A stretch of 64,000 nucleotides of DNA from Bacteroidales bacterium. Lineage in GTDB: Bacteria; Bacteroidota; Bacteroidia; Bacteroidales; UBA4417. The stretch covers positions 8,918 through 72,917 of the forward strand of contig JADJHD010000020.1 of assembly GCA_016707705.1 (NCBI GenBank), written 5' to 3'. Positions within the stretch are counted from its first letter, which is position 1. Each line of letters starts with the position of its first letter. Under the pieces are notes generated by a model. It saw only the letters and a program-made list of their open reading frames with translations. It ran no database searches and was not told where the DNA came from. Below are positions 12,308 through 63,908 of the stretch, one piece after another. A program made the position numbers and the translations under genes.

Positions 12308-12330
12308 TTTCAGCAACTAAATTCAGAAAG

Positions 12331-12357
12331 AGCAGCCCCTAAAGGCTGCTTTTTTTG
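12331..12357 (+). terminator. Rho-independent terminator
   Basis: AGCAGCC / GGCTGCT stem followed by T7. Confidence 0.7.
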
Positions 12358-12416
12358 TTTAATCATACTAATCCCTGCATTTAATTGTTATAATTTTGAA
12401 GTATCAAAGGCTCGTC

Positions 12417-39211: not shown

Positions 39212-39252
39212 TGTTTTCTTTTTATTTATTGACTTGATTAAAAAGTATAAAC

Positions 39253-40869: not shown

Positions 40870-40875
40870 AAGCCT

Positions 40876-43758: not shown

Positions 43759-45344
43759 TTGATTTGATCCAGTTTATAGAGTATGAAAGTAACACCTTGC
43801 TGTTCAACAGTTTTATGGCATTTCCCGCAAGGAAGCTTATTATGCTTTCCATCAAGCTTGAACCTGGTATTGTTGTGGTCAAAGCCATCAGCAGGAAGGA
43901 AGGAGGACTGATTATGGCACCTGCTGCAGTCAGAAGTACCATCAATAACAAATTGATTCTGATGTATATCTTTATGGCATGAACTGCAGGATGTCAATAA
44001 TCCGGAGAATCGCTGGCTGTCATGACCTTTTGCCTGCTTGTTGAAATGACAATCGCGGCAGGTCTTTTTCTGGTGGGCTCCCTTTAAGGCAAAACGTGTG
44101 CTGTCGTGATTAAATTGCACCAAACTCCATTTCGAGGGTGTATGGCAATTCTGGCAACCATTAACAGCATAGTACTTTTCACTGATCAAACCCTTGTGAA
44201 TATCGTCATGGCAATCAGCGCATACCTTTCCTATATTCTTGAATTTCCACTTATCGGTTTTCTTGTGACAAGCAAAACATGGTGTTGCAAGATGCGCGCC
44301 CTGCAAGGGATAAATAAGCTGGTGCTTCTCAATTGAATAGGATGATCCGGGAAATCCATTTACTGAGTGGCATTCGGAACAATCAGGTGAAATTTTATTG
44401 CGTGTGAACTGTCCTTCATGATAATCAACATGGCAATCCCTGCAGTTCTTATGATTCAACGGAGTTGTGAGTTTAAGCTTATGGCAGGATTTGCAGTTAG
44501 TATTCTGGTGTTTACCTTCGAGCTTAAAATCAGTTTTGTTATGATCAAATCCCTTTACTCCGCCACCTACAGCAAATGATTCTGTATTATGGCAATCAGC
44601 ACACTTTTGACCGAACTTATTATTATGGACATCCATATGGCAACTGGAGCAGGAGGAGAACTGCAAACCCTTGAACTCCTGATACTTTTGTCCATTCTTG
44701 TTCGAGATCTTATGACATTCAACGCAAGCCACTGACTGATGCTTGCCTGTCAGCTGATATTTTGCCTTCCGATGATCGAATTTGGGTGCAGGCTTAAATT
44801 TTTCGTTGTTATGGCAATCAGCACAATTCGAAGAGAGCGTCTTTTGATGATAATCGGCATGACAAGCCTGGCAATCGGTTTTCAATCCAAGGTAAGTTGT
44901 TTTCTTAGCTTTTAATTTAACATCCTGAATGAACTCCGGCTTATGACAATCCTCACATTTCTTTTTACTGTGAGCTCCGCTCAGGGTATAACCTGTTAAC
45001 TTATGATCAAATTTTGCTTTATCAAATTTAATGATCTGGAAATTAACCCCATGATGATCATTATGACATGCAGCACATTGTTTCGTTTTAACTCCTGCCG
45101 ACGAATGATACCCTTTGTTCTGGTCAATTCTTGTCTTGATGGCTGTATGACAGGCCAGACATTTTGCATTGGTAACTTTTTCGCCAAGTATATGACATTT
45201 CGTGCAGTTCGACATTCCCTCAAGGTGGGAATGCACTTTTGCAAGATCTCCCGGAGAAATCTGAGCAAGAAGTTTTTGATTAGCAATCAATGAGATGATT
45301 GCAATCAATGTAAACTTTAGGAATTTGCTTAAGATTGATTTCAT
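43737..45344 (-). CDS. Multihaem c-type cytochrome, 20 CxxCH
   Basis: Has a signal peptide. 20 CxxCH motifs in 535 aa, set in repeated F(D/N)H..H...L.G.H....C..CH units (c3/c7-like). Its 3' end overlaps the next gene's start by 22 nt. Confidence 0.9.
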   Translation of the reverse strand: MKSILSKFLKFTLIAIISLIANQKLLAQISPGDLAKVHSHLEGMSNCTKCHILGEKVTNAKCLACHTAIKTRIDQNKGYHSSAGVKTKQCAACHNDHHGVNFQIIKFDKAKFDHKLTGYTLSGAHSKKKCEDCHKPEFIQDVKLKAKKTTYLGLKTDCQACHADYHQKTLSSNCADCHNNEKFKPAPKFDHRKAKYQLTGKHQSVACVECHKISNKNGQKYQEFKGLQFSSCSSCHMDVHNNKFGQKCADCHNTESFAVGGGVKGFDHNKTDFKLEGKHQNTNCKSCHKLKLTTPLNHKNCRDCHVDYHEGQFTRNKISPDCSECHSVNGFPGSSYSIEKHQLIYPLQGAHLATPCFACHKKTDKWKFKNIGKVCADCHDDIHKGLISEKYYAVNGCQNCHTPSKWSLVQFNHDSTRFALKGAHQKKTCRDCHFNKQAKGHDSQRFSGLLTSCSSCHKDIHQNQFVIDGTSDCSRCHNQSSFLPADGFDHNNTRFKLDGKHNKLPCGKCHKTVEQQGVTFILYKLDQIKCEDCHR

Positions 45345-45367: not shown

Positions 45368-46701
45368 TTAGTTATGCTTAAGCAAAGCTTCACCGTATTT
45401 GCGGGTGATGATAACCCCGGCCTTCTTTAGGAATTCAATAGGTAGTTCTCCTCCAGCAAATATGAATACCAGATCATTCTTAATCATTATCTCCTCTGCA
45501 TTCTTAATGCCTTTCAGCACTACCGATTCCTTTAGAATATTCACAGGCAAAGTTTCGAAGATGACCTTCAGCTTCCCATCATTCATAGCTTGCTTAATGT
45601 TCTCGGCATTTTTAGGCTTTAACCGGCTAAACACATCACCACGATAGGAAAGCGTAACCTTGTTTTGATCGCATAGCAAAAGTGCGGATTCAATGGCTGA
45701 GTCTCCTCCTCCAACAACCAGGACTTCCTTTCCAGAAATTTCTTCAGGTTCAAGTAAGCGGTATGCTACTTTCTCCATCATTTCTCCCGGGACTCCAAGT
45801 TTCCTGGGAGTTCCCCTTCTGCCTACTGCCAGTAAAACAGTATTTGATGTAAGGATCTTCCCATTTCCGGTTTCGACCCTAAAAACTCCGTTTTCCTGTG
45901 TAATAGACTCTACTTTTGAGTTTTCCCTGATATTAATCCCATTCTTCAATAGGGCTTCATTCCATAAATCGAGAAGCTCAGGTTTGGAGGTTTCAAACAG
46001 CTTAATCTTACCTATAAAGGAAGATCCATTGCTGAAGTCATTACAATTTTCTGCCTTGGGAAAGTGTACACAGTACCTCCAAGAGTATCCTGTTCAAGAG
46101 TGGTGAATCGAAGATTGTGCTTTTTTGCAGTCAGGGAGGCAGAGATTCCTGCAGGCCCCGCTCCCACTATGATGAGGTCAAACTCAGCATGATGGGGCAA
46201 TTTGTGATACTTTGCGATATTTTCAACAGCCTGTTTACCCTGCTCTACAGCATTCTTGATAAGGCCCATTCCTCCCAGTTCACCGGCGATATAAATGCCA
46301 TTGACGTTGGTCTCAAAATTCTGATTGACATGTGGAAGGTCTACACCTCTTTTCTCAGTTCCAATACACAAAGTGATGGCCTGAGTTGGACAAGCATGAA
46401 AGCAGGCTCCATGTCCTATGCATTTTGAGGCATTGATGGTAGTTGCCTTACCATCCTTGATTCCTATGATATCTTTCTCAGGGCAGGCTGACACGCATGC
46501 ACCGGTACGAATGCAGCTATTGATATCAATAACAGGATGAAGTGACACCGGTTCAAACAGGCCTTCCTGTTTCGCCTTATTAATTTTCTCTTCAACAATC
46601 TTCGATTCCCGCTTTTGCTTTCGGAGATATATCCACACAACGAGGATGCAAAAAAGCGCAACTCCTCCATAGATTGCAATTTGCTCAAGGGCAGATTCCA
46701 T
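45368..46701 (-). pseudogene. Membrane-anchored 2x[4Fe-4S] ferredoxin-domain / FAD-NAD(P) pyridine-nucleotide-disulfide-type oxidoreductase, split by a 1-nt frameshift near 46012-46022
   Basis: ORF 46012..46701 carries a TM helix, CIRTGACVSACP and CIGHGACFHACP, and the GxGxxG motif DLIIVGAGPAG. It stops after ...AMDLPL. The next frame reads FIGKIKLFETSKPELLDLWNEALLKNGINIRE and runs straight into ORF 45368..45949, which carries the second Rossmann motif LVVGGGDSAIESA. Confidence 0.8.
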
Positions 46702-48677: not shown

Positions 48678-49535
48678 ATGGAAAAAGAGAAAAAGTCCGT
48701 AGCAGGTTGGTCAGTGGTAGCAGCTGTGTTCCTTACAGGTTTCAAGCTTATTGTCGGGCTATTTACCGGAAGCTTGGGAATCCTGTCGGAAGCATTGCAT
48801 TCCGGCCTTGACCTGGTTGCAGCTGTTATAACCTATTTTTCTGTTAGAATCTCCGATAAACCAGCAGATATAAAACACCCATACGGACATGGAAAGGTTG
48901 AGAATCTTTCTGCCCTGCTCGAAACATTGCTATTGATAATTACATGCTTTTGGATAATCTATGAAGCTGTTGAGCGACTTGCGTCCGGGAAAACACATAT
49001 CGAGGTTAATATCTGGAGTTATATTGTTGTCGTGACATCCATCGTGGTGGACTATACCAGGTCCCGGGCATTGTACAGAACGGCCCGAAAATACAACAGT
49101 CAGGCTCTTGAAGCGGATGCATTGCATTTCTCAACAGATATCTGGAGCTCTTCCGTAGTATTGATAGGCCTGATCTGCGCCAACTTTGGCTACCATATAG
49201 CTGATCCAATTGCAGCACTAGGCGTTGCAGCAATAGTGCTGGTTGTTTCTTTCAAACTGGGAGAAAGAGCAGTAAATGTACTTTTAGATACAAGTCCAGC
49301 TCCGGCGAGGGAAGAAATAGCTGCTTTATTGGACGACACAACAGGAATATTAGCATACAATGACCTTAAAGTCAGGGTATCAGGTGCTGATACATTTGTA
49401 AATGTAACCCTGAAATTTGAACCTTCACTTAGCCTGGAAGCTGCACACAGGCTTTCTGATACTATTGAAGAACAGATTCATCAAAGGATTGAGCGCTGCA
49501 ATGTTCATATCCATTATGAACCAGCATCAAGTTAA
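48678..49535 (+). CDS. Cation diffusion facilitator (CDF) family divalent-metal efflux transporter
   Basis: Six TM helices with CDF motifs (SEALHSGLDL, HFSTDIWSS) and a C-terminal cytoplasmic domain; 285 aa. Confidence 0.8.
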   Translation: MEKEKKSVAGWSVVAAVFLTGFKLIVGLFTGSLGILSEALHSGLDLVAAVITYFSVRISDKPADIKHPYGHGKVENLSALLETLLLIITCFWIIYEAVERLASGKTHIEVNIWSYIVVVTSIVVDYTRSRALYRTARKYNSQALEADALHFSTDIWSSSVVLIGLICANFGYHIADPIAALGVAAIVLVVSFKLGERAVNVLLDTSPAPAREEIAALLDDTTGILAYNDLKVRVSGADTFVNVTLKFEPSLSLEAAHRLSDTIEEQIHQRIERCNVHIHYEPASS

Positions 49536-49562
49536 ATTTTTCGATAACTAAAATTCTGCAAA

Positions 49563-50270
49563 ATGAGAACTTACGTTTGGAGTCTGCCAACCAGAATATT
49601 TCATTGGTTGCTCGTAATTGGAGTTGTACTGGCTTATGTGCTTGGAGAGGAAGAGGAGCTTTTAAATCTGCATTCCTCCATCGGATATGCCCTGGGTATT
49701 TTAATGCTGTTCCGAATTCTTTGGGGTCTTGCAGGACCTTTATATTCAAGATTCCGGGATTTCCCCATCAGCTTGAAAAATCTGATGTTCTTTTTCAAAA
49801 CCTTAGGTAATAGAAAATCCGGGTTCATTGGTCATAATCCGGCAGCCTCACTGATCATGCTGGCAATTATACTGGATGTTTTGTGCATTGTTGGAACGGG
49901 AATAATAATGATGTCATCAAGAGGAGAAGGTCTCTTCGGAAATTTCACCCCGGGATTTGACCCTGAAACCTATAAGGAATTGCATGAAGTATTTGTCAAC
50001 TTCCTGATAATCATAATTATTATGCACCTTTTGGGACTGGCAACCGACTTCTTTTTCCATCCCAAGGACAGAACAATACTTTCAATGTTCAATGGTTATA
50101 AAAATCTTGAAGGACCTAAAGTAAAAGTGAACAGTATCCAATGGATACTTGCAATAATCGGAATAACTGCAGCATTTACAATAATACCCTATTCACTGCT
50201 AAACCAGCAAATCAATCCTGAAAATAACCAATCTGAACAGTCAGAATTTGAAGAAATGGATGAGGATTGA
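49563..50270 (+). CDS. Cytochrome b (b561 / Ni-Fe-hydrogenase b-type subunit family) membrane protein
   Basis: The N-terminus WSLPTRIFHWLLVIGVVLAYVLG is typical of this family. Four TM helices carry conserved His residues. Confidence 0.7.
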   Translation: MRTYVWSLPTRIFHWLLVIGVVLAYVLGEEEELLNLHSSIGYALGILMLFRILWGLAGPLYSRFRDFPISLKNLMFFFKTLGNRKSGFIGHNPAASLIMLAIILDVLCIVGTGIIMMSSRGEGLFGNFTPGFDPETYKELHEVFVNFLIIIIIMHLLGLATDFFFHPKDRTILSMFNGYKNLEGPKVKVNSIQWILAIIGITAAFTIIPYSLLNQQINPENNQSEQSEFEEMDED

Positions 50271-50586: not shown

Positions 50587-51360
50587 ATGAAAACATCAGA
50601 AAAAAACAAGAGTCAAAATAAACGTATTTTACTGATAACCATGAGCCTGGCTTTAGTTATCCTTACATTTTCATGTAGTCATGGAAGTACCGCCTCAATC
50701 AATCTCAAGGAGAAGGGAATATTTCAGGCAACTGTTAGTGAAGTACTGCAATCAAAAGGATACACCTATTTGAAGGTTCAGGAGGAGAAAACGGAGAAAT
50801 GGCTTGTCGTTCCAACTATCAATATCAGCATCGCATCAAAGGTTTATTACAGAGAAGGTTTCAGGATGACAGAGTTTTCAAGCAAGGAGTTGAACAGGTC
50901 TTTCAGTGAGGTATACTTTCTTGAAACGATTGCAACCGATCCTGCACAATTATCAATTGATACTTTGCCTGTTCCCTCTAAATCTGTGCATCAGGAAATG
51001 AATTCGCCTGCAGCACAGGAAGATACTGTTATCAACAATCCGAATCAGGTTCCAATTTCTGACGGCAACAAGATTACTATTGAAAGTATATACAGAAATA
51101 AAGAAACTCTAAACGGTAAACTTGTGGTGATAAGTGGTAAAGTGACAAAATTCAATGAACGCATCATGGGAAAAAACTGGATCCATATTCAGGATGGCAG
51201 CAGCTTTGACAAATATAATGACCTCACTGTCACCACCAGGGAAACAGTAAAAGTCGGAGAAACCGTAAAACTCCAGGGGAAGTTGGTGTTAAACCAGGAT
51301 TTCGGATACGGATATTCCTATGAAATACTTCTCGAGGAAGCCATAATAATTACACAATAG
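50587..51360 (+). CDS. Lipoprotein with two OB-fold-like halves; paralogue of 38480..39211
   Basis: Lipobox ...LTFSC. Both halves align with 38480..39211, for example ISGKVTKFNERIMGKNWIHIQDGS...QGKLVLNQDFGYGY. Confidence 0.55.
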   Translation: MKTSEKNKSQNKRILLITMSLALVILTFSCSHGSTASINLKEKGIFQATVSEVLQSKGYTYLKVQEEKTEKWLVVPTINISIASKVYYREGFRMTEFSSKELNRSFSEVYFLETIATDPAQLSIDTLPVPSKSVHQEMNSPAAQEDTVINNPNQVPISDGNKITIESIYRNKETLNGKLVVISGKVTKFNERIMGKNWIHIQDGSSFDKYNDLTVTTRETVKVGETVKLQGKLVLNQDFGYGYSYEILLEEAIIITQ

Positions 51361-52414: not shown

Positions 52415-52429
52415 TGGCGATTGATTTGA
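52415..52429 (+). promoter_or_regulatory. Sigma-54-like -24/-12 element TGGC-N7-TTGA upstream of the NHL / 12-haem genes
   Basis: TGGCGATTGATTTGA has correct -24/-12 spacing. It overlaps the listed TTG start at 52426, which argues for the ATG at 52516. Confidence 0.35.
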
Positions 52430-52515
52430 TAAATCGTAGCATGAAATTTGCACAATACCCTGAGCACTATAAAAAACTCATTACTACAAGTGTTTACTGC
52501 CCAACCTCAGAATAC

Positions 52516-53538
52516 ATGATCAAGTCATTGAAAATCATACTGGTAATAGCATTTGTTCTGGGTCTCCAGACACAGTATAGTTTGGCTCAAATAACTGACG
52601 AGCCGCCATTAAATGACTCAATTACTAAGGTTGATATAAAATGGACAGGCACCTGGCCTCCTGAAGACCAACCTGCCAAAGCCAGAAGCCTGAGAAACAG
52701 CTTCAATTCAATTGTGCTGGGAATGCAAACCCCAGAATTGGTAAACCCTGTAGCTATTCTGGCCAATAGTCCGGATGATTATCTGATTCTTGACCAGGCT
52801 AACCGAACAATTTTTCAGATCTCAGGAAAATTGGGTGATATCCCCCAATTTATGAAAAAGAACACCTATGATCTTGCCTCCCTGGTTGGCATTTGCTCAG
52901 GACCTAATTCCAGCGTACTATTCACTGACTCATATTCGGGACAGGTTTTTATAAAAAAGTCAGGTCACAAGCGGCCGGAACTGCTTAATGATTCACTAAA
53001 GTTGCAGCAACCTACAGGGATAGCTTATTTAGAGCAAGAGCATCAGATCTGGGTACTTGAAACCAAGGAGCATTCCATAGCAATACTTGATGAAAGTGGA
53101 AACAGAATTGGGAAAATTGGAAAAAGAGGAAATGCCAAAGGTGAATTTAACTTTCCAACACATATCTGGGCAGATGCTAAAGGCTTGGTTTACATAACCG
53201 ATGCCATGAATTTCAGGGTACAGGTTTTCAATTCGAATGGTGAAGTAGTTTCTGTATTCGGACAGGTTGGAGATGCTTCAGGATTTATGGCAAGGCCTAA
53301 GGGAATAGCAACTGATTCACATGGAAACATTTATGTAGTGGATGCTTTATTCCATACTGTTCAGGTATTTGACCTGAATGGAAGATTGCTCATCAGTTTT
53401 GGAAATCAGGGTCATGGGAACGCTGAGTTCTGGATGCCTACCGGAATTTTTATTGACAAACAGGACCATATTTTTGTCGCAGACACCTATAATTCAAGAG
53501 TACAGATTTTTCAAATAACTCACGAAGACAGAAAATGA
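52516..53538 (+). CDS. NHL-repeat beta-propeller protein (secreted)
   Basis: Signal peptide MIKSLKIILVIAFVLGLQTQYSLAQ. It carries NHL units (GEFNFPTHIWADAKGLVYITDAMNFRVQVF, ARPKGIATDSHGNIYVVDALFHTVQVF, WMPTGIFIDKQDHIFVADTYNSRVQIF). Confidence 0.8.
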   Translation: MIKSLKIILVIAFVLGLQTQYSLAQITDEPPLNDSITKVDIKWTGTWPPEDQPAKARSLRNSFNSIVLGMQTPELVNPVAILANSPDDYLILDQANRTIFQISGKLGDIPQFMKKNTYDLASLVGICSGPNSSVLFTDSYSGQVFIKKSGHKRPELLNDSLKLQQPTGIAYLEQEHQIWVLETKEHSIAILDESGNRIGKIGKRGNAKGEFNFPTHIWADAKGLVYITDAMNFRVQVFNSNGEVVSVFGQVGDASGFMARPKGIATDSHGNIYVVDALFHTVQVFDLNGRLLISFGNQGHGNAEFWMPTGIFIDKQDHIFVADTYNSRVQIFQITHEDRK

Positions 53539-55208
53539 AAAAACTCGAACTGCTAATTATACTGACCATCATAGGCGCTTTATCAACTCAGGCGCAATCT
53601 GTTGTTAACACCAAGCACAACCTTTCCATAAGTGGACCCGGATCTGTTAAGGCAATTTCAGAGGATGAAATCTGTGTGTTTTGCCATACTCCTCATAACA
53701 GCCGTCCTGTTGCTCCACTTTGGAACAGGAATGATCCTGGTACCACCTACACTTTATATGCGAGTTCCACCTTACAGGCTTTGCCCGGACAACCTGATGG
53801 CTCCTCCATTCTGTGTCTTTCATGCCATGACGGCACAGTTGCTCTCGGCAGCGTCATAAGCAGACCTTCCACCATACCTATGAATGGTGGAAATTTTATG
53901 CCTGCCGGTGTAGGAAATCTGGGAAACAACCTTAAAAACGACCACCCCATATCATTCAGTTACACATCCGCCCTGGCTGCAGCTGACGGACAGCTAAAAA
54001 CTCCTGCCAGCATTACACCTCCTGTGAATCTCAGGAATGGCAAGGTCCAATGTACTTCCTGCCATGAACCTCATAAAAACCTGTACTCTGATTTTCTGCT
54101 GGCCAGTACACAAAACTCCAACCTCTGCAATAGTTGCCATCAAAGAACCTACTGGACAACCAGTTCGCATAATACTTCTGTAAAAACATGGAATGGAACC
54201 GCACCGGATCCATGGCCCTATTCACCCTGGACAACAGTAGCTGAAAATGGTTGTGAGAATTGTCATAATCCTCATAATTCAAACAGCACCAAATTGTTGT
54301 TGAAATACTCCACTGAAGAAAACAATTGCCTCGATTGTCACAATGGAAATGCATCTACAAAAAACATTGCGGCTCAGTTTGCCAAGGCATATAAGCACAA
54401 TATTACCAGTTATAATGGTATTCATGACGCCAATGAAGCCGCACAGATAACAAATATGCATTCGGAATGTGTTGATTGCCATAATCCTCATGCAGCAAGA
54501 AACCAGGCTGCAACAGCACCTGCCGTCAACGGATTCCTGCTGGGGGTTAAGGGAATCAATCAGAGTGGCACAGCTGTTAACCCGGCAACCAACTCCTATG
54601 AAATCTGCTACCGCTGCCATGCAGGTAGTGCAGGTGCACCTGCAGCTTCAACCCCAAGGGTCATTGTTCAAAACAATGTCAGGCTTGAATTTGCACCAGG
54701 CAACCCCTCCTATCATTCAGTTGCTGCTGTTGGCGTGAACACTACCGTTCCCAGTCTTATTGCACCCTGGACAACCAGCAGCAGGATGTATTGTACTGAC
54801 TGCCATGCAAGTGATGGCACTGGCTCACCAGCCGGCCCTCATGGCTCCATCTACCCGCATATCCTGAAAAGGCAGAACAATACAACTGATAACACCGCGG
54901 AATCCGCTGCAGCTTATGCCTTATGCTATGGATGTCATAATCGCACCTCCATTCTTGGAGATATATCTTTCAAAGAGCATTCCAAGCATATTGTGGGCGA
55001 AAGAACACCCTGTATTACCTGCCATGACCCGCATGGAATCAGCAGCACCCAGGGAAACAGTACCAATAACTCAAATCTGATAAACTTTTGGACAACAGTT
55101 GTAACCAACAGTTCCGGCGGAATCCGTAGATTTGATGATCAGGGAAATTTTAAGGGAAGATGCTATCTCACCTGCCATGGAGAGAACCATAATCCGCTGA
55201 GTTACTAA
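53535..55208 (+). CDS. Multihaem c-type cytochrome, 12 sites (11 CxxCH + 1 CxxxCH)
   Basis: Has a signal peptide. The CxxCH(T/N/E/D)PH motif recurs. The N-terminal ~200 aa are paralogous to 58510..59130. Its ATGA start overlaps the NHL gene's stop. Confidence 0.88.
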   Translation: MKKLELLIILTIIGALSTQAQSVVNTKHNLSISGPGSVKAISEDEICVFCHTPHNSRPVAPLWNRNDPGTTYTLYASSTLQALPGQPDGSSILCLSCHDGTVALGSVISRPSTIPMNGGNFMPAGVGNLGNNLKNDHPISFSYTSALAAADGQLKTPASITPPVNLRNGKVQCTSCHEPHKNLYSDFLLASTQNSNLCNSCHQRTYWTTSSHNTSVKTWNGTAPDPWPYSPWTTVAENGCENCHNPHNSNSTKLLLKYSTEENNCLDCHNGNASTKNIAAQFAKAYKHNITSYNGIHDANEAAQITNMHSECVDCHNPHAARNQAATAPAVNGFLLGVKGINQSGTAVNPATNSYEICYRCHAGSAGAPAASTPRVIVQNNVRLEFAPGNPSYHSVAAVGVNTTVPSLIAPWTTSSRMYCTDCHASDGTGSPAGPHGSIYPHILKRQNNTTDNTAESAAAYALCYGCHNRTSILGDISFKEHSKHIVGERTPCITCHDPHGISSTQGNSTNNSNLINFWTTVVTNSSGGIRRFDDQGNFKGRCYLTCHGENHNPLSY

Positions 55209-55235: not shown

Positions 55236-56681
55236 ATGAAGTCCTTTAGTTTCAGGGTTAAGATAATTGGAATGATTGTAATAGTGGTAACGCTGTTTTC
55301 GGTTATCTCATTTACAGTATTCAATTTTTACCTGAAGGACAAACTTATCACCCATACAGAGGAGACTTACAATCACATGAATCTCCTTCGTGATCAGTAT
55401 TACTTTACAATCAGCCAGCATGATGGTAAGGTTATCCGGTCCATGCTTAAAAATCTGGAACAGGATCCTGATGTACTCAGAACTTTCCTTATTAATAGCA
55501 AACGGAAACTTGTCTATCCCAAAAACCATAAGACTCCGGGTATTGATTCAGCAAATGTTGAACAGTACTTCAGCAGCCGGAAAGATATATCCATTGTCTC
55601 ATTCAGCAAGGAAAATCCTCCTTATTCCAGAGTTTTCATCCGACTGCAGAACATTGAGTCATGTCAGGAGTGCCATAACCCTTCGACCAAAGCACTTGGT
55701 TTGATTGTCATGGATCTTTCAAACCATGAAACTCAAAGCATAGTAAACCTGACCAAAAATTTCAGCATTTTCTATACCATTGCCATTCTGCTGGCCATCT
55801 TTACAATGGTAGCCTATCTTCACTTTAAGTATATCCGGAAAAGCATGCAGCAATTCCGGGCTGCCATTAGACGAATAAACAAAGGCGATCTGGAAAAACG
55901 TCTTGATATACCTGAAGTAAGGGAACTGGGAAGTCTGGGAAGGGATTTCAATGAAATGATGGCGACATTTGAAAGAACACAGTACCAGCTTCGGGAGTAT
56001 CATGAAAAGGAGCTTCAGAATACGCAGAAACTAGCTACAATAGGTGAAATGTCGGCAAGAATTGCTCACGAAATCAGAAATCCGGTCACCGGAATTGCCA
56101 GAGCAATGGAGGTCATTATAACTGAAATGAAGGATTCAGCCAATAAGCCGATTCTTGAAGAAATCCAGCGACAGGCAAATCGGGTCAATCAGGCAATTAC
56201 CAATCTATTGCGTTTCTCCAGGACAAAGGAACTGATACTGGAAAAAGGGAATATTAATGACATCCTGAAGTCTGTAACCTTCTTCCTTCAAAACCAATCA
56301 CTTGAAAAATCAGTGAGATTTGAGCTTCAAACAGATGATCTGCTTCCAAAAGTTTCATTTGATCACGAACAATTAGAGAATGTAATCATGAATTTGATTA
56401 TCAACTCAATACAATCTATTCAGGAGGAGGGAGTTATCATCATAAAATCATCTTTCATCGATAAAAAGAACAAGGTACTGATCTCTATTTCTGATAATGG
56501 CAAAGGGATTCCGGAGGAAGCAGCAGCTGAAATATTCAAGCCATTTTTTACGACGAGAACTAAGGGAACAGGACTGGGACTTGCAATCAGCAAGGATATT
56601 ATTCAGAAGCACGAAGGAGAAATATGGTTTAAAAATAATGAGGATTCAGGCTGTACCTTCTTCTTAACTTTACCTGCCTGA
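55236..56681 (+). CDS. Sensor histidine kinase with a periplasmic domain carrying one CxxCH (putative c-haem sensor), HAMP, HisKA and HATPase
   Basis: Two TM helices flank a ~145-aa loop containing SCQECHNPS. HAMP follows (INKGDLEKRLDIP), then the H-box ARIAHEIRNP and G-boxes DNGKGIP / GTGLGLAI. Confidence 0.85.
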   Translation: MKSFSFRVKIIGMIVIVVTLFSVISFTVFNFYLKDKLITHTEETYNHMNLLRDQYYFTISQHDGKVIRSMLKNLEQDPDVLRTFLINSKRKLVYPKNHKTPGIDSANVEQYFSSRKDISIVSFSKENPPYSRVFIRLQNIESCQECHNPSTKALGLIVMDLSNHETQSIVNLTKNFSIFYTIAILLAIFTMVAYLHFKYIRKSMQQFRAAIRRINKGDLEKRLDIPEVRELGSLGRDFNEMMATFERTQYQLREYHEKELQNTQKLATIGEMSARIAHEIRNPVTGIARAMEVIITEMKDSANKPILEEIQRQANRVNQAITNLLRFSRTKELILEKGNINDILKSVTFFLQNQSLEKSVRFELQTDDLLPKVSFDHEQLENVIMNLIINSIQSIQEEGVIIIKSSFIDKKNKVLISISDNGKGIPEEAAAEIFKPFFTTRTKGTGLGLAISKDIIQKHEGEIWFKNNEDSGCTFFLTLPA

Positions 56682-56719: not shown

Positions 56720-58132
56720 ATGAAACAGTTAAAAATCCTGGTAATTGATGATGAGAAGCTGATTCGCTGGTCACTCGAAAAACATTTGAGTGCAAAGGGA
56801 TACCAGGCAATTGGAGCGGAATCAGGTGAAGAAGGAATTAAAATATTTGAGCAGAATCATCCTGAAATAGTTCTGGTGGATAATAAATTACCTGGAATTC
56901 AAGGACTTGAAGTAATAAAAAAAATCAAGTCCCTTGATGAAGAGGCTGTTATAGTATTCATGACAGCATATGGTTCCATTGAGACAGCAGTAGAAGCAAT
57001 GAAATCAGGAGCTACTGAATATATCAACAAGCCCTTTGCCTTTGAGGAGGTTGAAGTCATCCTTGATAACATCAAGAACAAGCTAAAGATAATCAAGGAA
57101 ATACAAGTTCTAAAGAGACAACAAAAAGACATAGTAACCTTTGATCACATTATTGGAGAATCAGTTCAGTTTAAGCAAATTGTACACTTAGCCCGAAAAA
57201 TTGCCCGGACTAAAACAACAACGATACTTCTTTTAGGTGAAAGTGGAACCGGAAAGGATATGTTTGCCCATGCTATTCACAATGACAGCACCAGACATGA
57301 TAAGCCATTCATAACAATAAACTGTTCTTCATTACCGGAAACTCTCCTTGAAAGCGAACTGTTCGGACATGAAAAAGGAGCTTTTACAGATGCAAAGCAA
57401 ATGAAAAAGGGATTGTTTGAACTTGCTGAAGGAGGGACTGTATTTCTGGATGAAATTGGTGAAATAAATGCTGCAACACAGATAAAATTGCTTGGTGTGC
57501 TGGAAAACAGGGTAGTAAGACGAATAGGAGGCACCCAGAGTATTCCTGTGGATATACGAATCATCGCCGCAACCAACCGGGATCTGAAAAGAGCAATTGA
57601 TGATAAGTCCTTCAGAGAGGATCTCTATTACAGGCTAAAAGTCTTCCAGATTATCCTGCCACCTCTTCGTGAGAGACGTGATGATATTCCATTAATAGCA
57701 AACCATTTCATTACCCATTACAATAGCCAGTTCCAGAAGAATGTGAGCCATCTGAATGAAGGTGTCCGGGCTATGTTTCTTGAGTATAACTGGCCAGGAA
57801 ACATAAGAGAACTCCGGAACGTAATTGAAAGGGCTGTGATTTTGGAAACTATGACTAGCTTACAACCAGATAACCTTCCAAATGAGATGATTGGAAAAAT
57901 CGAGCAAGCCGATAATTCATCAAAAGAAAATTACACCCAAGGCAACATAGGAACTTCAGGATCAATTGTTGAATTTAATATTCCAAATGAAGGTTTTTCA
58001 TTATATGAAATTGAAAAACAACTCATTATTCATGCTTTGAAAAAATCTGACAATAACCAGACACGGACTTCAAAGATGCTGGGAATTTCAAGAGACACAT
58101 TACGATATAAAATGAAAAAATATAAACTTTAA
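56720..58132 (+). CDS. Sigma-54-dependent response regulator (NtrC family enhancer-binding protein)
   Basis: Receiver domain (VLVDNKLPG), AAA+ domain with GESGTGKD, the GAFTDA variant of GAFTGA, and ESELFGHEKG. A C-terminal Fis-type HTH is present (QTRTSKMLGISRDTLRYKMKKY). Confidence 0.9.
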   Translation: MKQLKILVIDDEKLIRWSLEKHLSAKGYQAIGAESGEEGIKIFEQNHPEIVLVDNKLPGIQGLEVIKKIKSLDEEAVIVFMTAYGSIETAVEAMKSGATEYINKPFAFEEVEVILDNIKNKLKIIKEIQVLKRQQKDIVTFDHIIGESVQFKQIVHLARKIARTKTTTILLLGESGTGKDMFAHAIHNDSTRHDKPFITINCSSLPETLLESELFGHEKGAFTDAKQMKKGLFELAEGGTVFLDEIGEINAATQIKLLGVLENRVVRRIGGTQSIPVDIRIIAATNRDLKRAIDDKSFREDLYYRLKVFQIILPPLRERRDDIPLIANHFITHYNSQFQKNVSHLNEGVRAMFLEYNWPGNIRELRNVIERAVILETMTSLQPDNLPNEMIGKIEQADNSSKENYTQGNIGTSGSIVEFNIPNEGFSLYEIEKQLIIHALKKSDNNQTRTSKMLGISRDTLRYKMKKYKL

Positions 58133-58448: not shown

Positions 58449-58463
58449 TGGCATATAATTTGA
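58449..58463 (+). promoter_or_regulatory. Sigma-54-like -24/-12 element TGGCAT-N5-TTGA upstream of the tetrahaem gene
   Basis: TGGCATATAATTTGA has correct spacing and lies 47 nt upstream of the ATG at 58510. It sits directly downstream of the sigma-54 activator gene. Confidence 0.4.
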
Positions 58464-58509: not shown

Positions 58510-59130
58510 ATGAAAAAAATTAATTGCCTCTTACTCGTTATTGCTTTCGCAACTCTGTCACAATTTGGGTTTGCACAGATTGCAGGAACAGGACATGACT
58601 TTTCAGGTCAGAGCTGGAACACTACAACTGAAATCTGCATTGTTTGCCACACTCCGCACAATGCTGACAATACAGTTGCAAATGCTCCCCTTTGGAATCA
58701 CAGCCTTTCAAATGTTGCTGCCTACTCAATTTATTCAGGTGCAACAATGAATGCAACTGTTGGTCAACCTGATGGAAGTTCAAAACTCTGTCTCAGCTGC
58801 CATGACGGAACTGTAGCTCTTGAAAACTTTGGTGGTGTTACCACCGGAACCAACCCCATGACTGGTAATGCCAATATGGGAACCGATTTAAGCAATGACC
58901 ATCCTGTTTCATTTACCTATGATGCAGCTTTGGCTTCAACTGATGGTGGATTGTTCAATCCAACCACTACTCAGTCAGGTTTGGGTGGAACCATCACAAA
59001 CACCATGCTTATCTCTGGCAAGATGCAATGTTCATCATGCCATGATGTGCACAATAGCGCCAATATCAACGGCCTGCTGCTGAAATCAAACTCAGCCAGC
59101 GCACTTTGCCTTACCTGCCATAACAAGTAA
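58510..59130 (+). CDS. Small secreted tetrahaem c-type cytochrome
   Basis: Has a signal peptide and 4 CxxCH motifs (CIVCHTPHN, CLSCHDG, CSSCHDVHN, CLTCHNK-stop); 206 aa. Confidence 0.88.
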   Translation: MKKINCLLLVIAFATLSQFGFAQIAGTGHDFSGQSWNTTTEICIVCHTPHNADNTVANAPLWNHSLSNVAAYSIYSGATMNATVGQPDGSSKLCLSCHDGTVALENFGGVTTGTNPMTGNANMGTDLSNDHPVSFTYDAALASTDGGLFNPTTTQSGLGGTITNTMLISGKMQCSSCHDVHNSANINGLLLKSNSASALCLTCHNK

Positions 59131-59254: not shown

Positions 59255-60376
59255 ATGCTCAGAATACTGATCCCTGCTTTAATTGCTGCCATTTTTCTTC
59301 AATCCTGCGCCAAAAAAGTCATTACGGGGCAGGATAGTTTAGTTATTTATCCTTCCCCTCCCGACACTGCAAGGATTCAATTCCTGACCAGGATCAGCAG
59401 CTCTCATGATGTTACAGGTGACCGGAATCCATTTTCTAGGTTAATTCTTGGAGAGGATGAGGATATCGCCATCAATAAACCATATGGTGTTGCAGTGTCT
59501 GGCGATAAGATCTTTATCTGTGATACTTTCATTCATGGACTGGACGTAATTGACATGAAGGATAATTCCTTCGAACAATTCATTCCAACAGGAAAGGGTG
59601 AACTAAAGCAACCTATCAATTGTACAGTGGATAGTCTGGGAAATGTTTACGTAGCAGACTCAGAACGCAAGCAGGTAGTTATTTTTGACAATGAAGGCAA
59701 TTATACTGGAAGCTTCGGAGACCCTGAATCCTTTAAACCTGTTGACGTTGCCGTTAAATATGGCAAAATATGGGTTACCAATCTGGCACAGCATCAGGTA
59801 ATGGTCTTCAGTTGTGATTCTTCACATGAATTACTGTCGGTTTGGCCGGAATTTGATAAATCAAACCCTTCCAGCCTGTTCTCCCCAACAAACCTGTATA
59901 TTTCTGACAACAAGGTTTATGTCACTGACTTTGGGGACTTCAAGATTAAGGAATATACCCTTGACGGTGAATTTATTACTTCATTAGGTACTTACGGACA
60001 AAATCCGGGGCAGTTCGTTCGTCCAAAGGGACTCGCAGTTGATAAGGATGAAAATCTGTACGTAGTTGATGCCGGATTTGAGAATGTTCAGATATTCAAT
60101 CCGGATGGAAAACTACTGATGTTCTTCGGAGGTAATTATAAAGGCCCCGGTGATATGTGGCTTCCGGCAAAAGTGACTGTTGATTACAATCATACTGCCT
60201 ATTTTGAAAAATATGTGGATCCATCCTACCATCTGAAGTATGTTATCCTTGTTTCAAATCAATTCGGCCCCGATAAGTTAAATATCTATGGAGCGATTGA
60301 ACCGGTTCGTCCCGGCCAAAAAGGTGGTTTGAGGAATCTTGAAAAAAAAGGTAAAAGAAAGCCTCCTATGTTCTGA
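59255..60376 (+). CDS. NHL-repeat / six-bladed beta-propeller lipoprotein
   Basis: Lipobox FLQSC. It carries NHL-like units (PYGVAVSGDKIFICD, GNVYVADSERKQVVIFDNEG, RPKGLAVDKDENLYVVDAGFENVQIFNPDG). Confidence 0.75.
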   Translation: MLRILIPALIAAIFLQSCAKKVITGQDSLVIYPSPPDTARIQFLTRISSSHDVTGDRNPFSRLILGEDEDIAINKPYGVAVSGDKIFICDTFIHGLDVIDMKDNSFEQFIPTGKGELKQPINCTVDSLGNVYVADSERKQVVIFDNEGNYTGSFGDPESFKPVDVAVKYGKIWVTNLAQHQVMVFSCDSSHELLSVWPEFDKSNPSSLFSPTNLYISDNKVYVTDFGDFKIKEYTLDGEFITSLGTYGQNPGQFVRPKGLAVDKDENLYVVDAGFENVQIFNPDGKLLMFFGGNYKGPGDMWLPAKVTVDYNHTAYFEKYVDPSYHLKYVILVSNQFGPDKLNIYGAIEPVRPGQKGGLRNLEKKGKRKPPMF

Positions 60377-60412: not shown

Positions 60413-61000
60413 ATGACCTGTAACAACTATTTCCATCACAAACAACTGCACAGATTCCTTTTGATTCTGATGGCCGGGATAATTGTGTTTGGAGTTACAG
60501 CATGTTCTTCATCCTATAAACATAAAGTATTATCATTCTTTTTCGATGGGGTGCCTGAAGTTTCAAGCTCTGAAACTCCTGTAGCTGCATCCGAAACAAA
60601 AGTAGATTCCTCAATTATTGCAACTCCATCCCTTGCAGCAGTAGCAATGAATGTACACCCTCCGTATCAGGATAAACAATGCCATTCATGCCATGATCCC
60701 GGGAAAATGGGCAAACTGATTATAGCCCAGCCGATGGTTTGCTATGCATGCCATGATGACTTCTCAAAAAAATACAAAAACACTCACGGTCCTGTTGAAG
60801 GCGGACAATGTACCATGTGCCATCAGCCACATCAGTCAGGGAATGAGCATCTCCTCACCCGCAAGGGTTCACTTGTTTGCCAGTATTGTCATGAATCTGA
60901 TGACCTGAGTACTATCAGTGAACATCAGGATCCTGAGAATTCTTCCTGTATGACCTGCCATGACCCACATGGAGGCGATAATCCTTATTTTATCAAATAA
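60413..61000 (+). CDS. Pentahaem c-type cytochrome lipoprotein
   Basis: Lipobox GVTAC, a Ser/Thr/Ala-rich linker and 5 CxxCH motifs; 195 aa. Confidence 0.85.
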   Translation: MTCNNYFHHKQLHRFLLILMAGIIVFGVTACSSSYKHKVLSFFFDGVPEVSSSETPVAASETKVDSSIIATPSLAAVAMNVHPPYQDKQCHSCHDPGKMGKLIIAQPMVCYACHDDFSKKYKNTHGPVEGGQCTMCHQPHQSGNEHLLTRKGSLVCQYCHESDDLSTISEHQDPENSSCMTCHDPHGGDNPYFIK

Positions 61001-61002
61001 CC

Positions 61003-62988
61003 ATGAACAGGGCATTCCGACATATAATCGTATTGTTGGCCTTGTGCATTTCCGGCCTGCATGCTTCTGCATATTATGGCAAGTATGGTAAGTCGAAGCA
61101 GAAGCAGTTCTATTTCTGTAAGCTTGACTATCTTACCGGAGAAGTGCGATTCTCGAGTCTCTATCGGGAACAGGAAAGAATTGGTATCAGTATAAATGAA
61201 CACCAGAACAGTAAGTATTTTTCAGGAGGGCTGGTAATCCGATCGAGCAGTTCGATAATCCATAAAAACTTTCTGGTGCTGGACCTTGATGCAGCCTACC
61301 TGCCTGAATCCAATAAGGACAACTTTTTAGTCATACCAGACCAGTCAGAGGTTCGATCAACTAAAAAGCTTGACCTCACAGCATCCTTCTTCAAGGAAAA
61401 AGACTTCAACCTTAGTTTATTCGGCAACTACGATGAAAGCTATTCCACCCGCGAAAACCTGACCAATATACGCACCAATAACCAGCACCTGGGGGCATCA
61501 ATGGGTTATAACAACCTTTTTGTTCCGTTCAGGCTTGATGTTCATCAGCGTTTCTGGAATGAAGAAGAAATTGGTGGAAGCCGATCATACAAATTTGACC
61601 AGTTCTCAGTCGGCGCCACTTTTAACAAATCCTTCAGGCAGTCCGACCGTTCCGAACTAAGACTCAACCACGACAGGAATATCAGCATCAATCAGTATCA
61701 ATTCAGAATTGCCAATACTTTGAATACTCTGGATTTCCACAACTCCATACACCTCGACAAGGGCCAGAGATACAATCTTATAACAAGTGTCAATGGAATC
61801 GATCAATTCGGGAATCTTAACATGCGCAGGATTCAAGCCATGGAATTGTTGAATTTCAAGCTGTCAGAAAATCTGAATTTCCTCACAAATTACACATTCC
61901 AGTCTACACGTCAGGATTCAGCAAGGCTAAAGCAGAATGGTTTCAGTACAACCCTTCAGCATACACTCTTCAGCAGTCTGCGTACTTCAATTCATTTCGA
62001 CTATGACAGATTGAAACATACCGCTTTCAGGGAAGTAAACAGAAAAACCGGAATCGAATTGAACTATACCAAGAAAATTCCCGGAGGCCATCTTAACATT
62101 GTATACAAACTTGATACCTACAGGCAGGATCACACATCCGGTTCGATTGATCTTAGAACTCTTGGTGAAGAATACACCCTCTCAGATAACCGGATTACAT
62201 TGTTGAAACTTCCTTATATTATTCTTAGTTCTGTTGTTGTCAGGGATATTTCCGGAACATTAATTTATGAAGCCGGACTTGATTATATGCTCATCCAGCA
62301 AAATACCTTTATCGAAATCAGGCGAATTCCGGGCGGTGCTATTCCGAATGAGGGAATTGTTCTGGTGGATTACACTGCTACCCGACCCGGAGATTACAGG
62401 TATGATGCAATTACCAATGCAGTTAATGTAAACCTGTATCTGTTTAAAAACCATCTGTCAGTCTATTACAGGTTCTCGAATCAGGATTACTTCGGACTTC
62501 ATACCACTGATTTTGTGACCCTGAATTACTTTACACAGAACATGGCCGGACTTAGGCTTGATTTAGGTGTTGTAAGTTTGGGAGCGGAGCATGAAGACTA
62601 TCAAAGCTCAATTCTCCCCTACCGCATGACACGTTATTATGTAAACTATCAGCAAAACCTTGGTGAACGGCTAATATTGCTCCTGAATGGAAATTTGCAG
62701 GATTATGTAATGCTAAATGATGACGAATCAAGAAATCAACGATATATTGATGTATCCGGCAAGGTATCCTACAATGTTTTCCGCCAGACCAATCTGAATA
62801 TGGATATTATGTACAGGAACCAATCCGGAAGGGGAATTGACCTTGACTTGTTTACTGGCCGCGCCGAGGTAACCTCTACTATAAACAGGCTATACCTTGC
62901 GGGTGGTGTGGAAGTTTACAGACGAAATTACATTGGTGAAAAAATCAATTTCAAGGGAGCCTATATCAAGCTTATCCGTAAATTCTGA
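61003..62988 (+). CDS. Predicted outer-membrane beta-barrel protein (porin-like partner)
   Basis: Has a signal peptide, pervasive amphipathic beta-strand patterns and no Cys-haem motifs. The C-terminus ...YIKLIRKF ends in Phe. It is separated from both flanking cytochrome genes by 2 nt. Confidence 0.65.
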   Translation: MNRAFRHIIVLLALCISGLHASAYYGKYGKSKQKQFYFCKLDYLTGEVRFSSLYREQERIGISINEHQNSKYFSGGLVIRSSSSIIHKNFLVLDLDAAYLPESNKDNFLVIPDQSEVRSTKKLDLTASFFKEKDFNLSLFGNYDESYSTRENLTNIRTNNQHLGASMGYNNLFVPFRLDVHQRFWNEEEIGGSRSYKFDQFSVGATFNKSFRQSDRSELRLNHDRNISINQYQFRIANTLNTLDFHNSIHLDKGQRYNLITSVNGIDQFGNLNMRRIQAMELLNFKLSENLNFLTNYTFQSTRQDSARLKQNGFSTTLQHTLFSSLRTSIHFDYDRLKHTAFREVNRKTGIELNYTKKIPGGHLNIVYKLDTYRQDHTSGSIDLRTLGEEYTLSDNRITLLKLPYIILSSVVVRDISGTLIYEAGLDYMLIQQNTFIEIRRIPGGAIPNEGIVLVDYTATRPGDYRYDAITNAVNVNLYLFKNHLSVYYRFSNQDYFGLHTTDFVTLNYFTQNMAGLRLDLGVVSLGAEHEDYQSSILPYRMTRYYVNYQQNLGERLILLLNGNLQDYVMLNDDESRNQRYIDVSGKVSYNVFRQTNLNMDIMYRNQSGRGIDLDLFTGRAEVTSTINRLYLAGGVEVYRRNYIGEKINFKGAYIKLIRKF

Positions 62989-62990
62989 CC

Positions 62991-63908
62991 ATGAACAACT
63001 CTTCATTTCTATATATCCTCCTGCCTTTCCTTTCTCTTCTGATGTTTTGGGAAAGCAGCAGGCTGCCTGAAAATGAATCTGGCAGAAATCCGATCAGCGC
63101 ACCCACCCAGTGCATAGATTGCCACAGTGATCTGATTGAAAGCCCCAATCAGCATAAACCTGCCGCTGAATCCTGTGGAAAATGCCACACCGTTGACTTT
63201 GTAGCTCACACCGAAAATGGTGCAAGAGGTCTTAATCTGAATTTTGAAATGCCTTTTCTTTGCCTTAATTGTCATGAGGATACCAAACAGAGCATCGAAA
63301 CAGTAAAGACACCTCACCTTGCTCTAAATACTGAAAAGAAATGTGCCAACTGCCATTCCCCCCATTCATCCGATCAAAAAGCCCTTCTGGTCTCTGAAGA
63401 GAAAAAACTATGCCTTTCCTGCCACAACAAAGATGTCACACTCGAAGGCAAACCTGCCGTAAACATCAAGAAACTGTTGTCAGTCAGCAAGGTAGTTCAC
63501 CCACCTGTTGAAAAAGGATGCAAGGTATGTCATCAGCCTCATGGTTCCGATAATAATTACCTGCTGATCAGTGCTTTTCCACGGACAAAATATCTGCCTG
63601 CTGTTCAGGACTCCTTTGCCTTTTGCTGGGAATGCCACGACAGCGATCTGCTCTCACTAGAAAAGACAACCACCTCCACTAATTTCAGGGATGGAGACCG
63701 CAACCTGCATTTTGTGCATATGAATGGAAAAAGGTCAAGATCATGCATAATGTGCCATAACGTACATGCAGCTCCCAATGAACATCTTATTGAGGATAAG
63801 GTTAAGTACGGCAAATGGGAACTGCCGATTAAATACACTGCAAATGAAAAGGGTGGTTCATGTTTCCCTGGATGCCATTCAGCAAAGCAATACAGCAGAC
63901 CTGAATGA
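62991..63908 (+). CDS. Multihaem c-type cytochrome, 9 sites (8 CxxCH + 1 CxxxCH)
   Basis: Hydrophobic N-terminus. Motifs are CIDCH, CGKCH, CLNCH, CANCH, CLSCH, CKVCH, CWECH, CIMCH and CFPGCH; 305 aa. Confidence 0.88.
   Translation: MNNSSFLYILLPFLSLLMFWESSRLPENESGRNPISAPTQCIDCHSDLIESPNQHKPAAESCGKCHTVDFVAHTENGARGLNLNFEMPFLCLNCHEDTKQSIETVKTPHLALNTEKKCANCHSPHSSDQKALLVSEEKKLCLSCHNKDVTLEGKPAVNIKKLLSVSKVVHPPVEKGCKVCHQPHGSDNNYLLISAFPRTKYLPAVQDSFAFCWECHDSDLLSLEKTTTSTNFRDGDRNLHFVHMNGKRSRSCIMCHNVHAAPNEHLIEDKVKYGKWELPIKYTANEKGGSCFPGCHSAKQYSRPE

Follow-up and report, generated by a model that had tools for sequence, protein, structure and literature searches.

The DNA analysed here is a stretch of 64,000 nt from the Bacteroidales bacterium contig JADJHD010000020.1, hereafter the window, within which all coordinates are given. 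Three consecutive genes on its plus strand encode a pentahaem lipoprotein cytochrome (lipo5), a large outer-membrane β-barrel and a nine-haem cytochrome (cyt9), and this triad, together with the genes that accompany it, is the subject of this report. Two further genes, encoding an OmcE-like tetrahaem cytochrome and an NHL-repeat β-propeller lipoprotein, precede the triad, and the five genes read as follows:

58510..59130, plus strand: OmcE-like tetrahaem cytochrome, first gene of the block and candidate filament subunit, matching the OmcE chain 7tfs_A
59255..60376, plus strand: NHL-repeat β-propeller lipoprotein (lipobox FLQS↓C, PF01436), located between the OmcE-like gene and lipo5
60413..61000, plus strand: lipo5, pentahaem lipoprotein cytochrome of 195 amino acids (aa), with a GVTA↓C lipobox and five CxxCH motifs
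61003..62988, plus strand: large outer-membrane β-barrel of 661 aa, with a signal peptide, a C-terminal Phe and about 30 predicted strands
62991..63908, plus strand: cyt9, predicted periplasmic nine-haem cytochrome of 305 aa, with eight CxxCH motifs and a C-terminal CFPGCH

A preliminary description of this DNA had presented the triad as a minimal porin-cytochrome conduit, and its account of the individual genes was borne out. The gene at 60413..61000 contains the lipobox, a low-complexity linker and exactly five CxxCH motifs; the product of 61003..62988 begins with a signal peptide, is free of CxxCH motifs and ends in ...RKF, with Phe as its last residue; and the product of 62991..63908 combines a hydrophobic N-terminus with eight CxxCH motifs and one CFPGCH of the CxxxCH type. 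The stop-to-start gaps on either side of the barrel gene are both 2 nt long, each reading 'cc', and a 2-nt gap between the barrel and cytochrome genes recurs in many Lentimicrobiaceae-like relative loci, which indicates that the close spacing has been kept. Since both cytochromes match Paired_CXXCH_1 (PF09699; E 5e-30 for cyt9 and 1.7e-22 for lipo5) and the barrel has many homologues, the features of the triad are far beyond chance.

A putative outer-membrane electron conduit has been defined operationally as a multihaem cytochrome in the periplasm, a β-protein integral to the outer membrane and a redox lipoprotein of that membrane (PMC6148476). The triad supplies all three parts. The periplasmic multihaem cytochrome is cyt9, which lacks a lipobox and whose location is predicted from sequence; the integral β-strand protein is the 661-aa barrel, as indicated by the AlphaFold2 (AF2) model, DSSP and Foldseek; and the redox lipoprotein is lipo5, with its lipobox and five CxxCH motifs, the membrane and leaflet being predicted. 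To this extent the proposal of a conduit stands, but its minimality does not, as the triad is embedded in a larger conserved block.

The extent of this block became apparent from the distribution of the barrel. A word-indexed search retrieved 93 homologues of the 661-aa protein, unnamed or annotated as 'hypothetical', and an exhaustive search with a barrel profile retrieved, at E ≤ 1e-3, 2,446 clusters formed at 50% identity; at E ≤ 1e-30 it retrieved 913. Gene context was counted in the loci with enough flanking sequence among 61 genomes, which were found by scanning a single genome for each species with 14 closer barrel sequences. These genomes belong to Bacteroidota (Lentimicrobiaceae, Bacteroidales, Rikenellaceae, Marinilabiliales, Flavobacteriaceae and Saprospiraceae) and to Chlorobiota/Ignavibacteria, and more distant members of the barrel family carry Phycisphaerales and Omnitrophota labels. 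The conserved order is OmcE-like tetrahaem cytochrome, NHL lipoprotein, lipoprotein cytochrome, barrel and nine-haem cytochrome. The lipoprotein cytochrome adjoins the barrel in 45/45 loci, also where the gene order is permuted; upstream of the barrel, the NHL propeller is found in 43 of 45 loci and the OmcE-like tetrahaem cytochrome of about 206 aa in 44 of 45; downstream, a cyt9-like gene follows in 54 of 55. Furthermore, a pair consisting of another NHL protein and a multihaem cytochrome of about 560 aa, similar to the window protein MHC557 described below, lies within 10 kb of the barrel in 30 of 32 loci. Loci of the Phycisphaerales/Omnitrophota type retain the genes for the OmcE-like protein, the NHL protein, the lipoprotein and the barrel as well as the NHL and multihaem pair, with no cyt9 gene adjacent, and in no locus with enough flank does the triad occur alone. 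The block is thus syntenic across Bacteroidota and Ignavibacteriota, and because of this fixed arrangement and of the versions without an adjacent cyt9 gene, the triad is neither an autonomous nor the minimal conserved unit.

The first gene of the block points to the kind of system involved. Its 206-aa product matches over its full length the OmcE nanowire subunit 7tfs_A (PDB 7TFS; E 4.7e-27) and also matches a second filament-type PDB entry, 9yuq_N (E 3.7e-26). In an alignment with Geobacter OmcE, the four CxxCH motifs and the four further histidines H29, H50, H131 and H181, which together make eight ligand positions, are invariant. By analogy, the protein is a candidate for polymerisation into an extracellular filament.

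In Desulfuromonadia, the omcE cluster has been described as comprising two multihaem cytochromes, two β-propeller lipoproteins, OmcE and a large barrel (bioRxiv 10.1101/2025.10.22.684050). The window holds the same list of parts, including a large barrel without a Pfam family that ends in Phe. OmcE is represented by the product of 58510..59130, with its four CxxCH motifs and four further histidines; the β-propellers by two NHL proteins, of which the one encoded at 59255..60376 has a lipobox; and the two further multihaem cytochromes by cyt9 and lipo5, which are homologous to the first and the second, respectively, of the cytochromes encoded upstream of omcE. A large outer-membrane barrel is likewise present nearby, common descent with the Desulfuromonadia barrel not being shown. 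For these comparisons, we used the omcE locus of Geobacter sulfurreducens (our locus L066), with an OmcE query rebuilt from the PDB alignment. In this organism omcE is GSU0618, and the listed c-type cytochromes include GSU0615 and GSU0616; because of the gene order, we infer that the latter two are the cytochromes of the locus. The first of them shares 33% identity over 283 aa with cyt9 (E 4e-51), including the C-terminal CxxxCH, and the C-terminal part of the second shares 33% identity over 137 aa with the haem domain of lipo5 (E 6e-18). The NHL lipoprotein of the window, which matches PF01436 with an E of 3e-17, shares 27% identity over 305 aa with the lipoprotein of the same type in the G. 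sulfurreducens locus (E 5e-30). Sequence comparison thus shows four of the five block components to be homologous to proteins of the G. sulfurreducens omcE locus.

The fifth component is the barrel. The AF2 model of the 661-aa protein, built from a 49-sequence alignment, reached a mean predicted local distance difference test (pLDDT) score of 90.8 and a predicted template-modelling (TM) score (pTM) of 0.70, so that a soluble or non-barrel protein, either of which would have undone the preliminary description, is not what the model shows. DSSP assigned 18 long strands, a 57-aa insert (residues 394-450) and then 12 strands, and this total of about 30 supplies the strand count that had been called for. 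The strands average 15 residues, and all loops are 2-9 aa long except the insert, which lies between strands 18 and 19. In the family alignment no stretch is more conserved than this insert, whose pattern is VVVKD..G.IIY..DY.LIERN.Y.EI.RIPGG, and because of strand parity it would emerge on the periplasmic side. No Pfam or NCBIfam match was obtained for the window barrel, and a Pfam scan of 49 homologues gave no consistent match and no MtrB_PioB match in any of them. The barrel therefore falls outside the MtrB/PioB family (PF11854, TIGR03509). Neither a single-query phmmer search nor a search with the 49-sequence profile matched any PDB sequence. In structural searches of the PDB with Foldseek, the model matched only generic large outer-membrane barrels of 22-30 strands, at TM scores of 0.2-0.37. 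These were TonB-dependent receptors, LptD, FimD, MtrB and SlpA, with MtrB (6r2q_B; TM 0.36) nominally the best by TM, and no specific structural relative was found in the PDB. For a circular 30-strand barrel, geometry gives a calculated Cα-Cα diameter of roughly 56-65 Å. Published cytochrome nanowires are 4-6 nm wide (PMC12954529), and the agreement of the calculated diameter with this width is a rough one between calculated and published values.

The lipoprotein that adjoins the barrel has its lipobox cysteine at C31 and carries an FFFDGVP motif at residues 42-48. Across the family alignment, C31 and D45 are invariant, the remainder of the motif is near-invariant, and the motif lies 8-11 residues after the cysteine. 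A disordered, low-complexity linker follows at about residues 49-80, where the AF2 pLDDT falls below 50, and then the haem domain. Lipo5 weakly matches MtrA (6r2q_A; E 9e-9). Surface lipoproteins of Bacteroidota carry an acidic export signal just after the lipidated cysteine. The preliminary description had placed the lipoprotein outside the cell, and this placement found no backing, as the residues after the cysteine of lipo5 are rich in S, T, K and Y and lack such a signal. The same holds for the family, whose residues +2 to +6 are rich in S, T, P, K and Y: among 33 homologues whose lipobox was recognised, the acidic residues at these positions number zero in 18, one in 13 and two in two. 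Because the signal is absent in most homologues, an anchor facing the periplasm is the default prediction.

Variants of this lipoprotein were also noted. The partner in locus L054 is 706 aa long. In loci of the Marinilabiliales/Salinivirgaceae type (L056, L058, L060 and L064), a nine-haem lipoprotein with an FFDGVP motif is encoded downstream of the barrel and carries acidic residues directly after the cysteine (CVTEDN or CVTEEN); unlike the remaining family, these proteins might be surface-exposed.

The third member of the triad, cyt9, weakly matches MtrA as well (6r2q_A; E 1.5e-5). Neither cytochrome belongs to the DmsE/MtrA family of decahaem proteins defined by TIGR03508, since cyt9 has nine haem motifs and scores 66 bits, and lipo5 has five and scores 50 bits, against a cut-off of 192. 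Some relatives encode a cyt9 homologue with an OmpA peptidoglycan-binding domain fused to its C-terminus (11970..13349 in locus L002; L022 and L023 are also listed), and other homologues are enlarged to 10+1, 14+1, 18+1 or 25+1 haem motifs. Because relatives show either this fusion or an expansion to 15-26 haem motifs, the sequence of cyt9 fits a wire that spans the periplasm.

Upstream of the five-gene block, the cluster continues with the following features:

52426..53538, plus strand: second NHL β-propeller (PF01436, E 1e-24), whose stop codon overlaps the next gene by 4 nt
53535..55208, plus strand: 12-haem cytochrome MHC557 of 557 aa, with 11 CxxCH motifs, one CxxxCH and an N-terminal OmcE-like domain
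55236..56681, plus strand: sensor histidine kinase (HAMP, HisKA, HATPase_c) with a haem motif, CQECH, in its periplasmic domain
56720..58132, plus strand: sigma-54-dependent response regulator, identified by the domains of its homologues
58449..58463, plus strand: candidate sigma-54 -24/-12 element TGGCATATAATTTGA, 47-61 nt upstream of the start codon of the OmcE-like gene

The second NHL gene likely starts at the ATG at 52516, which would give its product a signal peptide. In MHC557, residues 6-204 match 7tfs_A (E 7e-39) and constitute an OmcE-like domain, and the C-terminal part contains a second, partial OmcE-like module (hhalign probability 96.8%). Genes of these two types are paired in related loci and form a single fused protein in locus L065. 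From its sequence, MHC557 is a candidate for the base or tip adaptor of an OmcE-type filament. The authors of the OmcE preprint sought such an adaptor protein in the Geobacter OmcE operons and found none (bioRxiv 10.1101/2025.10.22.684050).

The kinase and regulator genes stand between the two halves of the cluster. The CxxCH motif of the kinase is kept in 19 of 20 homologous kinases, and the homologues of the regulator in loci L001 and L002 contain Response_reg, Sigma54_activat and HTH_8 domains. A similar element also precedes the OmcE-like gene in 10 further loci, nine of which encode the regulator as well; in the window and in these nine it has the form TGGCA(C/T)-N5-TTG(A/C). A sigma-54-like element was seen in only two of the loci without a detected regulator. 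Judging from these sequences, the cluster is probably expressed from a sigma-54 promoter that the haem-containing kinase and the regulator control.

Taken together, the block, its relatives and the homologies to the G. sulfurreducens locus make it reasonably likely, in our judgement, that the triad forms the outer-membrane portion of a conserved gene cluster for OmcE-type cytochrome filaments and is not an autonomous unit of the Mtr or Ext kind. Its best reading is that of the outer-membrane conduit of an OmcE-type filament system, of which it is probably also the anchor or export pore. In the mechanism that we propose, cyt9 would be a Sec substrate that matures in the periplasm, with an OmpA tether to peptidoglycan in some relatives, and would take electrons from periplasmic or inner-membrane carriers and hand them to lipo5 at or inside the barrel. 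The latter would be lipid-anchored in the inner leaflet by the periplasmic rim of the barrel and docked through FFFDGVP; its flexible linker would let the haem domain reach the barrel lumen, and five haems would suffice to span the membrane. Outside, the haem chain would run on into OmcE-like subunits or into the 12-haem adaptor with its OmcE domain. Because these proteins would have to cross the outer membrane pre-folded and loaded with haem, the wide barrel, with its short loops on both faces and its conserved, plug-like periplasmic insert, would probably act as export pore and anchor as well.

The alternative that fares best is that the triad is a self-sufficient conduit of the Mtr/Ext type, in which cyt9 is threaded through the barrel, lipo5 is the terminal reductase at the surface and the OmcE-like and NHL proteins are accessory. 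Each of the three elements in the operational definition is indeed at hand, both cytochromes are weakly MtrA/DmsE-like although below the TIGR03508 cut-off, nine haems could span the barrel as in MtrA, and the 2-nt gaps suggest co-translation. Against this, the triad never stands alone in loci with enough flank, and cyt9 is not adjacent in the Phycisphaerales/Omnitrophota versions. Furthermore, most lipo5 homologues lack the acidic signal for surface export, cyt9 relatives with 15-26 haem motifs or an OmpA domain suit a periplasmic wire better than an insert in the barrel, and about 30 strands exceed the width that one MtrA-like wire needs. We therefore regard a self-sufficient conduit as unlikely.

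Less probable still is a barrel acting, like an usher, purely as an export and assembly pore for the OmcE-like subunits, with its insert as a gating plug and the cytochromes as periplasmic carriers or chaperones. Holo-cytochromes have to pass the outer membrane folded, and the barrel is very wide and has minimal loops apart from the one conserved, β-rich insert at a periplasmic turn. That insert brings the usher plug to mind. The Foldseek matches include FimD, and a porin or usher-like route has been proposed by the authors of the preprint, for whom the barrel of the omcE cluster is a putative secretion pore or anchor (bioRxiv 10.1101/2025.10.22.684050). The TM score to ushers, however, is about 0.28, no better than to other large barrels. 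The lipoprotein cytochrome, moreover, stays beside the barrel in every locus counted, even with permuted gene order, and its anchor-proximal motif is invariant; lipo5 thus appears to be a stoichiometric partner of the barrel and not a free carrier.

Two-component systems of a barrel and a cytochrome that lack a surface cytochrome also exist. Their existence, the fact that electron direction is not readable from sequence, and the finding that no protein of the cluster carries a type IX secretion system (T9SS) C-terminal domain or an acidic lipoprotein signal for sorting to the outside would all suit an inward or non-filament system, be it an electron-uptake or Fe(II)-oxidising gate like MtoAB or PioAB, or a periplasmic redox or detoxification module with a monomeric OmcE-like protein. 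This is nevertheless very improbable, as the four distal histidines that complete the haem ligation of OmcE filaments are invariant, the component set equals that of clusters in organisms with imaged OmcE filaments (bioRxiv 10.1101/2025.10.22.684050), and the barrel lacks the MtrB/PioB signature.

Several observations weigh against the preferred interpretation of the triad as the outer-membrane part of an OmcE-type filament system. The window barrel is not detectably related to the Desulfuromonadia omcE barrel (-1.8 bits in hmmsearch), and hhalign gave a probability of only 1.5% for its relation to a profile of five Desulfuromonadia-type barrels. Both the single sequence and the five-sequence profile were thus negative for homology to the Geobacter omcE-cluster barrel, and the functional analogy between the two is therefore drawn from context only. 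The barrel strand count comes from DSSP alone and the position of the insert from strand parity, the AF2 model of lipo5 (29-sequence alignment) is poor, with a pLDDT of 57, and the placement of the three proteins relative to the membrane is itself inferred. All but one of the 61 barrel-bearing genomes are labelled as metagenome-assembled genomes, with no named isolate among them, and these lineages have therefore not been seen to bear filaments. A search of the window for the sigma-54 consensus showed that TGGCATATAATTTGA by itself is not above chance, and the element carries weight only because its position recurs across loci. Finally, what OmcE filaments do physiologically is itself under dispute.

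A bolder proposal, which we find conceivable but somewhat doubtful, holds that the barrel of about 30 strands is a dedicated export and anchor pore for nanowires, independent in origin from the Geobacter barrel, that lipo5 is its electrical feed-through, that uncultured Bacteroidota, Ignavibacteriota, Phycisphaerales and Omnitrophota build OmcE-type nanowires and that the 12-haem protein is the base or tip adaptor. Irrespective of this proposal, the distinct barrel family, the lipidated pentahaem partner, the OmcE-domain adaptor candidate and the host phyla are new.

The differences from the Geobacter omcE cluster extend beyond the barrel sequence. The Desulfuromonadia barrel is 713-765 aa long, compared with 661 aa here, and the genes stand in a different order. 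In Geobacter, the protein corresponding to lipo5 has neither lipobox nor FFFDGVP and bears another N-terminal domain. The OmcE-domain 12-haem protein is additional here, as are, in many loci, the haem-sensor kinase and sigma-54 regulator, and the cluster is not followed by glycosylation genes. The preprint lists five phyla with omcE clusters, Bacteroidota not among them, and the hosts found here (Bacteroidota, Ignavibacteriota, Phycisphaerales and Omnitrophota) all lie outside these five (bioRxiv 10.1101/2025.10.22.684050). Our literature search likewise turned up no account of Bacteroidota with OmcE-type clusters.

Shewanella MtrCAB (PDB 6R2Q) resembles the triad in uniting a barrel, a periplasmic multihaem cytochrome and a lipoprotein cytochrome, and both cytochromes here are weakly MtrA-like. 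It differs in having 26 strands against about 30, and 10 and 10 haems against five and nine, and the MtrB/PioB signature is absent here. The Geobacter conduits ExtABCD, ExtEFG, ExtHIJKL and OmbB-OmaB-OmcB satisfy the same three-element definition. In these systems, ExtC and ExtF are pentahaem lipoproteins, ExtK is periplasmic, the Ext barrels are predicted to have 18-21 strands, and the components of the Ext and OmcB conduits are not homologous to one another (PMC6148476). The likeness to ExtC, ExtF and ExtK put forward in the preliminary description was an analogy and not a match; given the periplasmic ExtK and the narrower Ext barrels, and because the demonstrable homologues are proteins of the G. 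sulfurreducens omcE locus, we set this analogy aside. The Ext and OmcB clusters, moreover, contain no OmcE or NHL genes; they are set apart from the triad by description and not by sequence.

Two other systems were considered. OmcS is a hexahaem cytochrome unrelated to OmcE. For its nanowires, a companion cluster named osc is mentioned in a summary of Shen et al. 2025 (PMC13194489). In Desulfovibrio ferrophilus, multihaem cytochrome genes lie beside genes for NHL-repeat β-propellers (DFE_0448-0451 and DFE_0461-0465); no porin is apparent in these clusters, and their deletion gave no Fe(III) oxide phenotype (PMC9769857). Without a porin, and likened here by description only, they were rejected as the closest system.

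Elsewhere in the window, a second multihaem cluster occupies 38480..45344 on the minus strand. It encodes a 960-aa protein with 36 CxxCH motifs and one CxxxCH, a 535-aa protein with 20 CxxCH motifs, and then a 243-aa protein after a 538-aa one. The 538-aa protein has no Pfam match, ends in ...KRF and is unrelated to the 661-aa barrel family; it is possibly another barrel. A 'gigantic' porin-cytochrome cluster, distinct from the OmcE-type cluster, was described in 2026 in a Lentimicrobium metagenome-assembled genome (PMC13013709). It may correspond to this minus-strand cluster; as a counterpart of the triad it was rejected, being a different cluster.

Two paralogous proteins without Pfam matches (36% identity, E 2e-48) are encoded at 38480..39211 on the minus strand and at 50587..51360 on the plus strand, one at the edge of each cytochrome cluster, and the 257-aa paralogue has a lipoprotein-like N-terminus (...LTFSC). 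At 48678..50270 on the plus strand, a cation-efflux (CDF) transporter gene is followed by one for a cytochrome b561/Ni_hydr_CYTB membrane protein, and the same pair occurs near the cluster in locus L002; the b-type cytochrome could be an inner-membrane quinol link. Finally, at 45368..46701 on the minus strand, a pyridine-nucleotide-disulphide oxidoreductase appears to be split over two adjacent open reading frames, one of 229 aa (4Fe-4S dicluster plus the beginning of the FAD domain) and then one of 193 aa (the remainder), which suggests a frameshift or sequencing error.

How folded, haem-loaded nanowire subunits cross the outer membrane or attach to it is an acknowledged open question (bioRxiv 10.1101/2025.10.22.684050). 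Under the interpretation favoured here, the locus would be a second solution, its gene order conserved, in which Geobacter-like cytochromes and propellers are combined with a very wide barrel unrelated to that of Geobacter and with a pentahaem partner held by a lipid anchor, and comparing the Geobacter and window systems should reveal the essential parts. OmcE-type machinery is also extended to Bacteroidota, among them the Lentimicrobiaceae that are common in sediments and anaerobic digesters, as well as to three further phyla not listed for OmcE.

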